NCBI GenBank assembly: GCA_964488865.1
Contig: CAZAWR010000074.1
Location: 1 to 50,624 of the forward strand
Source: an uncultured Polyangiaceae bacterium
Lineage (GTDB): Bacteria; Myxococcota_A; Polyangia; Polyangiales; Polyangiaceae
Length of the DNA stretch: 50,624 nt
Reading direction: 5' to 3'
In this document: piece after piece, positions 46,027-48,806 of the stretch
Numbering within the stretch: position 1 is the stretch's first letter
How the letters are laid out: every line of letters starts with the position of its first letter
Notes under the pieces: model-generated
Seen by the model: only the letters and a program-made list of their open reading frames with translations
Told to the model about the DNA's origin: nothing
The model's database searches: none
Made by a program: the position numbers and the translations under genes

Positions 46027-46415
46027 CAGAGGTTGGCCCTGCCGGACGCCAGTCTTGGACCGGCTTCGGAACTGTGGACTCGTGCATAGCGTGTCGAAGA
46101 GCCGGGCAAATCCTGGAATCACGAACAGGGTTGGCTAACCAAACAGGCGGCTAAGAAAGACCCCGCAAAAGGGCCGAAGAAAGCCCCCAAGAAACACCCG
46201 AAACTGCCCGACTGGTCGCGTGGCTCTTTCCTCGGCAGCCTTGCGGTTGGCTGTTGGCTTCGGTGCTGACGGCTGCCCCGAAACCCGCACAGTCCCCGGC
46301 GACTTGTTTGGTCCCTTGGATTCCGGTAGCGTCGCCGTGTGTGCATGGTTTCTGCCGTGTGGGATGCGCGGGTCGATCGCCAGGTGGGCGAAAGCCCCGT
46401 GAGACGGACGCTTCG

Positions 46416-47735
46416 GTGAACGGCAGGACCGACGATCGCCCCGATCCGAGCCGCGTCATCGCGTCGCTCGCGCGCGACCGGGTCAACCTCGACCTGAAGA
46501 CGGTGGACCTTTGCTTCCTCGCAGGGCTCTACCTCAAGGCGGACAAGGCAGCGCTCGCGTCGTTCGAGGAGGACGCGCTCGTCGACATGTTCGAGCAGAT
46601 CTGCGACGTGGTCGACCCCGCCGCCGAGAACCCCCGCAAGCGAGCAACCCACGCGATCCAACGACTGCGCGAGCAACGGATGCTGGCACGCGTCGACGGC
46701 GCCGGCATCGTGCGCGCGGGAGACTACGCGTTGACCAGGCTTGCGGCCGCGGTCGTGGAGTACTTCCTCGCGGACGAGGCGTTGACGCGCGAAAGCTTGA
46801 CGTTGCTTACGGGCACACTGCGTGCCCAACTCGCCGAGGTTCTCGCTACCGCGAAGAAAGCCGAGGGCGAGGATGCCTGGCGCGCGACTGTCGTAGGGCC
46901 GCTGCGCGTCACGGTCGGAGACCTCGTCGCCGGCATCGAACGCCGGCAGCGCGGCCTCGACGCCCAGCAAGAGGAGGTACAAGCCCAGATCGCCAAGCTG
47001 CTCTCGGCCGATTGGTTCAGTGCCGTGGACCGTTGCGAGGCGTTGCTCGACGCCACCACGTCCACCCTACGGGAGCTGAACGAGATCCTGCTCCGAGACA
47101 CGCACCACTTCGTTGCGCTCCTGCTCGAGATCCAGACGCTCGCCGTAGCTGTCGCGAACACCGAGGCCGAAGCCACGGTCCAGCGCGTCATCGAACACGT
47201 GGACCGCATCGCCGCCTGGGGCTCCGCGAGACAACGGGCGTGGTCGGAGTACTACCAGTACGTGCACCGGTACTTGCGCGACGTCGTCCGTCTCGACCCC
47301 GACCGCGCTCTCAGCCAACGTCTACGAGACCAGCTAGCCGCTTGGCCCAAGCGTCCGTTCCACCTCGTCGCCGCGCGCGCGCCTTCCATCCGCCTCCTGC
47401 GCGCGCTCGAAGCGCGCGTCGAGCACCCACCCGTGGTCCAACCGCGCGCGGAACGCGATGCGGATCCTGAATGGGTCGAGCCCGAGAGCCTGGTCGCCGA
47501 CATCGAGGCCCTTGTGGAACGGGCACGCGATGAGGGAGCAGCCACCCTCGCAAGCGTGTCGTCCCGGGTTCTCTCGGACCTGCCGCAGGCCGTGCGCTAC
47601 GCGGCGACGGGCCGCATTGCCCACGCGGTCGCGCAGCGCTCGCAGGTCCGAAGTGAGCGGGAGCGACCTTGGACTCCCGCGCTCGATCGCCTCGAAGTGG
47701 AGGACTGGACCATCGATTGGAGCAGCAAATCATGA
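46416..47735 (+). CDS. Candidate Wadjet JetA / MksF-like (DUF3375-like) protein
   Basis: A ~440-aa all-helical protein whose stop overlaps the ATG of a DUF4194-like ORF (ATGA). Family assigned from architecture and motif recall only. The GTG start at 46416 is uncertain; the ORF opens at 46254. Confidence 0.4.
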   Translation: MNGRTDDRPDPSRVIASLARDRVNLDLKTVDLCFLAGLYLKADKAALASFEEDALVDMFEQICDVVDPAAENPRKRATHAIQRLREQRMLARVDGAGIVRAGDYALTRLAAAVVEYFLADEALTRESLTLLTGTLRAQLAEVLATAKKAEGEDAWRATVVGPLRVTVGDLVAGIERRQRGLDAQQEEVQAQIAKLLSADWFSAVDRCEALLDATTSTLRELNEILLRDTHHFVALLLEIQTLAVAVANTEAEATVQRVIEHVDRIAAWGSARQRAWSEYYQYVHRYLRDVVRLDPDRALSQRLRDQLAAWPKRPFHLVAARAPSIRLLRALEARVEHPPVVQPRAERDADPEWVEPESLVADIEALVERARDEGAATLASVSSRVLSDLPQAVRYAATGRIAHAVAQRSQVRSERERPWTPALDRLEVEDWTIDWSSKS

Positions 47736-48050
47736 CGGGCTCGACGTTCCAGACCCTCGAAAACGCCATCGCACACGACCACTTCCCTGAAGTCGATCTG
47801 ATGTTGCGGCGCGGGCGGCACATCGGACGCGACGACGGGACCCTCTACGAGTACCTCGTCGATGCGCAGGCGATCCTCGAGAAGTTCTACGAGCGATTCG
47901 GGTGCGGGCTGGTCCAGCGAAGCGATGGCTACTTCTTCCTGCTGCCGTCGGGAGACCAATTGGGACGGAGGCATCTTTCCGCCGGAGAGATGCTCGTGGG
48001 CCAGACACTCGCCTTGCTCTACCTCGATCCAGCGACGCTGCAGCCAGGAC
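47732..48050 (+). pseudogene. Candidate JetB / MksE-like (DUF4194-like) 5' half, truncated
   Basis: MTGSTFQTLENAIAHDHFPEVDLMLRRGRHIGRDDGTLYEYLVDAQAILEKFYERFGCGLVQRSDGYFFLLP...LALLYLD. The frame degenerates into Arg-rich nonsense after about residue 105 and no jetC/jetD follows. Confidence 0.35.
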
Positions 48051-48053
48051 GAC

Positions 48054-48806
48054 GCGCTGGTCATCAGCAATCCTGGGGGGTTCGTCGAAGGCGTCACCCT
48101 CGACAACCTGTTGACGACGGAACCCAGGCCGAGGAATGCGTCCCTCGCGGACATCTTCAAGCGGATGGGGCTGGTAGAACGAACGGGCCGCGGCGTGGAC
48201 ATCATCTACCGAGGGCTGCTGCGGTACGGTCGTCCGTACCCCGACTACTCGCGCAGCGACTCGTCCTCGGTCGTCCTGCGCATGCCGGTCGAAGAAGCCG
48301 ATCTGCAGTTCCTTCGGCTCATCACCGAGGAGGAGAACCGTCAGCAAGCGCCTCTTCCGATCGACAGCCTCATTGCGCTGTCGATGCTGCGGGAGCAGCG
48401 GCGCACGACCCGAGCGGAGCTCCAGCGAGCCATCCAGAAGGATGAGGCGGCGGCAACACGAACGCTGGAAGCGCTGCGGGAGCGGGGCCTCGTCCAGTCC
48501 CAAGGGCGAGGGCGGGGCAGAACCTACATGCTGAGTGCGAAGGTCTACACAAGGCTCGGAGAGCGTTCGGAGTACGTCAGGCAGGCAGGCTTCTCCTCCC
48601 TGCAGCAAGACCAGATGATCCGCCAGTACGTGCGCACCCACGGGCAGATTGTCAGGTCGGATGTGGTGGACCTCTGCGGGTTGGGGACGGACCAGGCGAC
48701 GCGGCTGCTTGCGCGGCTGGTGGAAGAAGGCGTTCTTGTCGCTGAGGGCGACCGTCGTTGGCGGAGGTACCTGCCGGGTCCGAAGCTGCACGGGAGCCCC
48801 CTATGA
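48054..48806 (+). pseudogene. 5'-truncated fragment of a regulator gene: second half of an HATPase_c_4 (RecG-C-like) domain plus a C-terminal winged HTH
   Basis: LVISNPGGFVEGVTLDNLLTTEPRPRNASLADIFKRMGLVERTGRGVDII. It lies in frame +1 relative to the jetB-like fragment, has no start codon of its own and lacks the N-terminal ~300 aa of the family. Confidence 0.5.

Follow-up and report, generated by a model that had tools for sequence, protein, structure and literature searches.

A probable Wadjet-group operon remnant joined to a fragment of a BREX type 6-associated regulator gene in an uncultured Polyangiaceae bacterium

All four subunits of a Wadjet system are required for plasmid restriction (reviewed in PMC10586767), and MukBEF proper has no nuclease partner (PMC7617805). 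An operon of Sorangium cellulosum So ce56 (L012; CAN95859-CAN95856) is listed as operon 169, “FEBG” (MksF-E-B plus the nuclease MksG), in Data S1 of Burmann et al, 2025 (PMC7617805). Here we describe an orthologous locus from an uncultured Polyangiaceae bacterium, located on a 50,624-nucleotide (nt) stretch of contig CAZAWR010000074.1 (the window), a chromosomal segment with a GC content of 66%. The locus resembles the So ce56 operon in its MukF (84% identical), its mukF-mukE order, its overlapping or tightly packed genes, and its KicB/MukF_M and MukE/MksE Pfam signature, but in the window mukE breaks off after codon 104, and mukB and JetD/MksG are missing. We conclude that a four-gene Wadjet-group operon very likely survives here only as a non-functional remnant, joined by illegitimate recombination to a regulator gene associated with BREX type 6 (BREX-6). 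The joined segments are:

46058-46415, plus strand: upstream leader of the cassette (mukFEB-jetD), with L003 homology from 46058 and L002 homology from 46090
46416-47735, plus strand: intact kleisin gene of the mukF/mksF/jetA type, 439 amino acids (Pfam, NCBIfam, PDB, relatives)
47732-48043, plus strand: KITE gene of the mukE/mksE/jetB type, codons 1-104 only (partial Pfam matches; DNA and translated alignment with L002 and L003)
48043-48044, plus strand: breakpoint, with mksE nt 312/313 joined to regulator nt 944/945
48044-48445, plus strand: out-of-frame tail of the truncated mksE reading frame, 133 Arg/Pro-rich codons (reading-frame list, Pfam scan)
48045-48806, plus strand: regulator fragment, codons 316-568 of a 568-amino-acid SLFN_AlbA_2/HATPase_c_4/winged helix-turn-helix (wHTH) protein (Pfam, L002 alignment)

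The kleisin gene is complete. Its open reading frame (ORF) spans 46254-47735, with a likely true start at GTG 46416 that agrees with the public gene call, and its product, anticipated in the original prediction as a protein of ~440 amino acids, is 439 amino acids long. The protein matches the Pfam families KicB (E 4e-10), MukF_M (E 2e-27) and MukF_C (E 2e-4), and scores 416.9 bits against the NCBIfam MukF equivalog model NF003615 (cutoff 407) over profile positions 7-438 of 440. Its PDB matches are the MukF structures 7NYW and 3EUH only (E 2e-35). The predicted ATGA coupling to the next ORF is present, with the mksF stop codon TGA (47733-47735) overlapping the ATG at 47732. A search with the kleisin returned more than 1,600 relatives, many at 76-91% identity, of which the closest are encoded on contigs L002 (99%; P0002) and L003 (91%) and in the Sorangium genomes L004 and L005 (83%).

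The mksE gene, by comparison with the 227-229 codons of mukE in the intact relatives, stops short. The ORF matches MksE (PF21980) and MukE (PF04288) over residues 8-113 only, at profile positions 2-100 of 163 and 4-100 of 229, and matches NCBIfam MukE at profile positions 11-107 of 216. These matches, together with an alignment that assigns codons 1-104 to mksE, bear out the earlier impression that the first ~105 residues are JetB/MksE-like. A full-length KITE subunit has ~227 amino acids and two winged-helix domains; 104 codons are left here. The 133-codon tail running to 48445 showed no homology in profile scans. Neither an SMC (structural maintenance of chromosomes) gene (mukB/jetC) nor a Toprim gene (jetD) was found, whether inside the window or within 5 kb past its end, as had been noted for the sequence directly following. 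The profile families originally proposed for the two ORFs, DUF3375 and DUF4194, proved wrong: the ORFs match MukF and MukE instead, and no window ORF matched the PADLOC v2 JetA or JetB models at E ≤ 0.01. The proposed Wadjet-like (JetA-JetB/MksF-MksE-like) identity holds by Pfam, NCBIfam and gene neighborhood, and fails as regards membership in the PADLOC JetA and JetB families.

Alignment to the intact relatives places the breakdown of the mksE frame, expected at 48040-48060, exactly between positions 48043 and 48044. To the left, window 46090-48044 corresponds to L002 9665-11629 at 97% nt identity, collinear through mukF-mukE, with L003 at 91% nt identity; to the right, window 48044-48940 corresponds to L002 8187-9093 at 96%, in the interior of a gene for a 568-amino-acid regulator. 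Identity of mksE with L002 and L003 stops after GCGACGCTGCAGC, and identity of the regulator with L002 starts at CAGGACGACGCG. Across the junction the window reads GCGACGCTGCAGC followed directly by CAGGACGACGCGCTGG, where intact mksE goes on GCAGCACGGGGG and the regulator reads CGCCTCCAGGACG. The two sides have a single C in common at the junction (1 nt of microhomology), the frame shifts by +1, and codon 104 of mksE meets codon 316 of the 568-codon regulator gene, so that both are cut mid-domain. At least 5.75 kb is missing on the Wadjet side (the rest of mksE, mukB and jetD), and 944 nt is missing on the regulator side. We rejected a sequencing error that, once corrected, would restore one protein: the two sides match separate genes that lie 3.4 kb apart and in reverse order in L002.

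Beyond the junction, the +1 frame enters HATPase_c_4 at profile position 10 of 89 (~48048), mid-domain as originally described, and continues through wHTH domains to 48806. The fragment has lost the AlbA_2 domain, the beginning of HATPase_c_4 and its own start codon, and keeps the C-terminal winged helices, with AlkZ-like, MarR-type and DIP2311-like_C matches. Its full-length orthologue (L002 7243-8949, 568 amino acids) has a sole PDB relative, 3LMM. The right side of the junction is thus comparable to codons 316-568 of a gene for a DIP2311-like protein (3LMM), but unlike such proteins it has neither the AlbA_2 domain nor a complete HATPase_c_4. Ten of 254 codons differ from L002 (98.7% nt identity to codons 316-568), and the window branch of the fragment carries one synonymous versus three non-synonymous changes. 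Public gene calls at 47925-48806 (293 amino acids) and 47862-48806 (314 amino acids) start in out-of-frame mksE sequence, and a third at 48803-49453 (216 amino acids) reads through a non-coding repeat block; all three are artefacts of the scar.

The intact relatives L002, L003, L004 and L005 each encode mukF (439-441 amino acids), mukE (227-229), mukB (1472-1473) and a JetD_C gene (322-323), co-directional and tightly packed. L002 MukB scores 1113 bits against NCBIfam MukB (cutoff 699) and L002 MukE 115 bits against NCBIfam MukE (cutoff 250), while the product of the fourth gene matches Pfam JetD_C at 41.4 bits (cutoff 22) and, weakly, PADLOC JetD1 (E 5e-9). With the PADLOC v2 models, L002 MukE and MukB gave partial matches to JetB1 (E 0.0017) and JetC1 (E 2e-12), and L002 MukF had no match at E ≤ 1. 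A survey of genomes covering contigs L011-L090 found the same four genes at most loci where MukF was at least 62% identical and the contig was of sufficient length. Because the relatives carry four genes and Data S1 gives the So ce56 orthologue as FEBG, we assign the ancestral unit to the Wadjet/Mks group with nuclease; judged by sequence, the ancestral operon falls in a MukBEF-like branch of the Wadjet group.

The MukFEB loci form two clades. Clade 1 MukF proteins are 62-85% identical to that of the window, and a JetD_C gene follows mukB in most clade 1 loci on a contig of sufficient length. Clade 1 MukF proteins at 70-85% identity occur across Myxococcota, Acidobacteriota, Actinomycetota, Planctomycetota and Pseudomonadota, a distribution that indicates horizontal transfer, or else mis-binning of metagenome-assembled genomes. 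Clade 2 MukF proteins are 48-57% identical to the window's and mostly from Polyangiaceae; these loci have no JetD and have housekeeping genes after mukB, and may represent a chromosomal condensin. Like MukBEF of E. coli and Photorhabdus thracensis (7NYW, 3EUH), the window MukF and L002 MukB pass NCBIfam equivalog models; unlike it, orthologues of the window operon have a JetD_C gene and appear to have spread across phyla by horizontal transfer. MukBEF sensu stricto has no MksG/JetD and is inherited vertically in enterobacteria and their relatives, a description that clade 1 does not fit. With the type I JetABCD/MksBEFG/EptABCD systems (E. coli GF4-3, P. aeruginosa PA14, C. glutamicum), the operon has in common an ancestral logic of kleisin, KITE, SMC and JetD-family nuclease, but it differs from them in having no PADLOC JetA match, weak JetB, JetC and JetD matches, and a 322-amino-acid JetD-like protein in which the JetD_C region alone is recognized. 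This MukBEF-looking branch of Wadjet is barely detected by the PADLOC models, and in the window the label “chromosome partition protein MukF” hides the stump of a plasmid-defense operon. Standard pipelines would probably label the nuclease-bearing system of L002 (10001-17383) a condensin, and so miss its defense role.

We propose that the ancestral operon would have encoded a mukF-like kleisin, a mukE-like KITE protein, a mukB-like SMC ATPase and a JetD_C/MksG-type nuclease, and that the regulator gene would have held its normal site between pglX and pglZ of a BREX-6 cluster. Illegitimate recombination at 1 nt of microhomology would have linked mksE codon 104 to regulator codon 316. From the operon, such an event would take the remaining half of mksE together with the whole of mukB and jetD; from the regulator it would take codons 1-315, along with any sequence between the two genes. 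It would leave behind an orphan intact kleisin gene, a 104-codon KITE stub with 133 nonsense codons, and a promoter-less regulator fragment. In the simplest history, the Wadjet cassette would have stood upstream of the BREX-6 cluster, and one deletion would have taken the 3′ part of the cassette and the 5′ part of the cluster; a single deletion between the cassette and the downstream BREX-6 cluster is probably what occurred. The original prediction had read the locus as a deletion or recombination scar that inactivated a Wadjet-like system. That a scar is present is supported by MksF relatives at 99, 91 and 83% identity with full operons, by the So ce56 FEBG operon, and by collinearity on both sides; that it arose by a simple deletion is plausible and not demonstrated, since the nearest relative has the opposite gene order. 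Because the loop-extruding ATPase motor, the nuclease and half of the KITE subunit are missing and Wadjet needs all four subunits, the remnant should be inactive and unable to restrict plasmids. The event appears to be recent because the window-specific branch is very short, with ~2 synonymous and 2-3 non-synonymous changes in mksF. These substitution counts fit relaxed selection without proving it, the changes on the window branch being too few for significance when dN/dS (the ratio of non-synonymous to synonymous substitution rates) is applied to the age or character of the decay.

The locus is a degraded representative of a known kind, and a real but ordinary rearrangement scar. Its main value lies in annotation and as a record of defense-island turnover, with no new mechanism, and it offers a dated example of two adjacent defense systems, Wadjet and BREX-6, lost together in one lineage. 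The surrounding features are:

44577-45588, minus strand: 311-amino-acid gene without a Pfam family; the conserved block ends at 45586-45588
45588-45812, plus strand: copy A, an older remnant of a second regulator gene, last ~70 codons (direct repeat of 48584-48808, 79% nt identity)
45813-46026, plus strand: copy A of the post-regulator non-coding block (aligns to 48809-49044, ~79%, 88% in the core)
48807-49434, plus strand: copy B of the post-regulator non-coding block (conserved in L002, 92%, and in L006)
49435-50538, plus strand: SEC-C-motif/TPR gene, 367 amino acids (Pfam SEC-C; usual right neighbor of the regulator; ATGA overlap with the pglZ start)
50535-50624, plus strand: start of BREX-6 pglZ, running past the window (PADLOC and NCBIfam BREX_PglZ_6, split over two ORFs)

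On contigs L007-L009, the regulator gene lies between pglX and pglZ in complete BREX-6 clusters, in the order brxB-brxC-pglX-regulator-pglZ-brxD-helicase. A gene of this type (~555 amino acids, SLFN_AlbA_2/HATPase_c_4/wHTH) forms a conserved pglX/pglZ insert at L007 10001-11665, L008 6026-7690, L009 864-2528 and L006 2524-4197, and the SEC-C/TPR gene that follows the regulator is a feature of the window's lineage. Contig L006 encodes the regulator, the SEC-C gene and intact pglZ (973 amino acids), brxD (437 amino acids) and brxHI in order, and its regulator protein is 95% identical to that of L002. Just past the window, pglZ, brxD and brxHI were matched by NCBIfam and PADLOC models, with pglZ and brxD each in two ORFs. 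The downstream pglZ, brxD and brxHI, intact in L006 and L007, align the locus with BREX type 6 (brxE-brxA-brxB-brxC-pglX-pglZ-brxD-brxHI), but the window locus is without pglX and brxA/B/C, none of which was found among the scanned window ORFs, and its pglZ and brxD are frameshifted. Compared with the intact genes of L006, 1 nt is missing from pglZ at L001 11743 and 10 nt from brxD at L001 14356, within a region of BREX-6 decay at L001 11101-15337 (window 50535 onward). Because the downstream pglZ and brxD also carry frameshifts, the whole island is decaying; signs of this across the island are the pglZ and brxD deletions and the older regulator remnant at 45588-45812.

That older remnant, copy A, sits between the g302-like gene and mukF. 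An in-frame stop precedes it, and it includes a called 63-amino-acid ORF (45619-45810). Its closest protein belongs to the same regulator lineage (76% to P0121; other matches ≤59%). The left-flank homology of the window with L002 (two copies) and L003 stops at 45586-45588, where copy A starts. Similarity to L003 and to both L002 copies of the g302-like block ends at this same position, and the cargo past it differs per genome; the shared block runs ~55 nt further in L002 and L003 than in the window. The two copies of the 1-kb g302 module in L002 are 95.6% identical. The boundary at 45586-45588 resembles the margin of a variable hotspot. The left boundary of the Wadjet cassette falls at ~46058-46092, and the sequence to its left is unlike in all three genomes (the window, L002 and L003). 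In L002 and L003 the cassette edges (window ~46058-46092, and just past the jetD stop) coincide, and the flanks do not. In L003, the cassette directly adjoins the g302-like gene and is followed by AbiEi/AbiEii.

Both non-coding blocks carry CCGCGGATAG-type 10-mers. The copy A block combines these with an AT-rich stretch, and the copy B block contains 11-bp-phased ACCGCG(G/C)ATAG repeats at 48822-49022 with an AT-rich stretch at ~48935-48985. The window holds 13 of the 10-mers versus 4.4 expected, and 12 of the 13 fall into two clusters (45883-46004 and 48822-49022) directly downstream of the two regulator copies, often 11 bp apart, in both orientations and adjoining the AT-rich stretch. They may serve as operators for the wHTH protein. 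Similar 10-mers were noted at L006 4269-4300, and in a distant BREX-6 locus a CGCGTATAG/ACCGCG motif related to them lies after the regulator gene (L007 11760-11830). A separate 52-nt repeat (GTGCC.CCGTGCCTCCGTGGTGAATCTCTTTCAGGCTGCG...) with a terminator-like hairpin occurs at 49108-49159 and 49346-49397, upstream of the SEC-C gene. A third, weaker copy spans 50556-50607 in the first pglZ codons, where the window has a 12-nt insertion relative to L006.

Several points weigh against a single deletion that produced an inactive remnant. The mks operon of L002 has the regulator on its upstream side, so the join runs “backwards” and cannot be obtained from the L002 order by one deletion, and among the available contigs none has jetD followed by BREX-6. 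One contig of this genome was compared, and an intact copy elsewhere is possible. The European Nucleotide Archive (ENA) and Logan assemblies that both contain the junction may share source reads. Finally, mksF is intact and has a low dN/dS, which leaves room for its continued use. As to the first of these points, the L002 order itself bears marks of rearrangement. Upstream of mukF, L002 has the regulator, the block that follows it and 40 nt from the start of the SEC-C gene. It carries a scar of its own (3939-4244, 9487-9666), where these 40 nt run directly into a duplicated stretch of 97 nt from the 3′ end of an HTH_17 gene, immediately upstream of mukF. Because this 97-nt duplication flanks a 5.3-kb insert, the L002 gene order is probably derived. 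A 119-amino-acid PglX C-terminal remnant lies upstream of the L002 regulator. The L002 tail after jetD, read for BREX genes, offered a possible transposase-like HTH only, seen by eye and without a hidden Markov model match. L003 (Wadjet, then AbiE) and L006 (BREX-6), which come from the same sample, showed no terminal overlap.

The backward join raises the question of whether mukF and the 5′ end of mukE were instead copied or moved beside the BREX-6 remnant in a partial duplication or transposition, with an intact mukFEB-jetD, or the reciprocal product, elsewhere in the genome. Relative to L002, a join that leads from the downstream mksE back to the upstream regulator has the topology of a tandem duplication; the region is plastic, as the duplicated 1-kb g302 module and the 97-nt duplication around the 5.3-kb insert of L002 attest, and the breakpoints 45588 and 48044 enclose a 2.46-kb patch. 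Yet copy A, which precedes mukF, is only 79% identical to copy B and is not a recent duplicate of the block of regulator, SEC-C gene and pglZ; a recent tandem duplication was rejected on this figure. Moreover, in a collection of 15 billion proteins the MksE of L002, which comes from different samples, is the sole full-length homologue above 89% identity. We regard a duplication or transposition junction as improbable. An origin of the junction in a metagenome assembly or library chimera, the true genome retaining an intact operon, is a still weaker prospect. It is true that the sequence comes from a metagenome contig assembled from short reads (k139_ name) and that related strains with other arrangements occur in similar samples. 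A mis-join by a de Bruijn assembler, however, requires a common k-mer, and 1 nt of common sequence is too short for one. ENA contig L001, MEGAHIT-style by its k139_ name, has the same sequence across the junction region, and Logan contig L010 (run SRR8863431), from a different pipeline, is 100% identical to window 43214-49143, junction included. Because the Logan assembly has exactly the same junction, an artefact specific to one assembler is disfavored. The window differs from the ENA contig by a 24-nt indel and appears to be a further separate assembly, and the other, independent lesions in the island fit real decay. On the 1-nt microhomology and the identical Logan contig, an assembly chimera was rejected.

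Two further alternatives give the joined sequence a present function. The orphan MukF-like kleisin might still work with a paralogous nuclease-less MukBEF, or a wHTH-only fragment made from an internal start might bind the phased repeats. In keeping with this, mukF is full-length with a dN/dS of 0.075 between the window and L002, a second MukFEB without JetD is common in Polyangiaceae genomes, and the regulator fragment keeps both wHTH domains with a conserved repeat block directly downstream. Against it, the low dN/dS comes mostly from the L002 branch and the window-branch counts fit relaxation, clade 2 MukF is only ~50% identical, and the regulator fragment is without its own start and N-terminal domains, making continued use highly doubtful. 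The original prediction had also entertained, as its less-favored option, a chimeric gene requiring a +1 frameshift, taken here as a programmed frameshift that fuses MksE(1-104) to regulator(316-568). Apart from the +1 offset of the reading frames at the junction, the comparisons speak against this idea, to which we give practically no credence: both partners are cut mid-domain, no known slippery motif is present at CTGCAGCCAGGACGA, and relatives all encode two separate genes, with no fusion among them. The sole catalogued junction-spanning proteins (293 and 314 amino acids) come from the same strain, and the third member of their cluster is the intact 568-amino-acid regulator of L002.

A different reading accepts the scar and sees it as one breakpoint in a strain-variable defense hotspot, in which repeats act as recombination substrates for the recurrent reshuffling of a MukBEF-like Wadjet cassette and of BREX-6 modules. 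The substrates would be the duplicated 1-kb g302 block, whose end is at 45588, and the regulator gene together with its repeats phased at 11 bp, to which wHTH-only regulator remnants might still bind. If this were true, the locus would be a natural record of two defense systems exchanged and lost together, and not of a single random deletion. We consider this reading unlikely, and favor the non-functional remnant of a four-gene operon joined once, by illegitimate recombination, to the BREX-6-associated regulator gene.

The remaining 45 kb of the window holds ordinary chromosomal genes, including those for HflX, YceD, TrmD, methionine aminopeptidase, ThyX, tRNA-Pro and several Ser/Thr kinases. 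These genes, together with the best genome matches, point to a Polyangiaceae-like myxobacterium. An Rfam scan of the window returned tRNA-Pro alone, and a promoter and terminator scan returned one terminator-like hairpin, within the 52-nt repeat, and nothing decisive. The last 11.2 kb of the window corresponds to ENA metagenome contig L001 (ERZ27284381:k139_172264), and is identical to it save for one 24-nt tandem-repeat indel near 41007. There, the window has a 24-nt tandem unit (CCGATGCCGACG x2) at 41007-41030, within a minus-strand ORF, that is missing from the ENA contig; this difference is copy-number variation.

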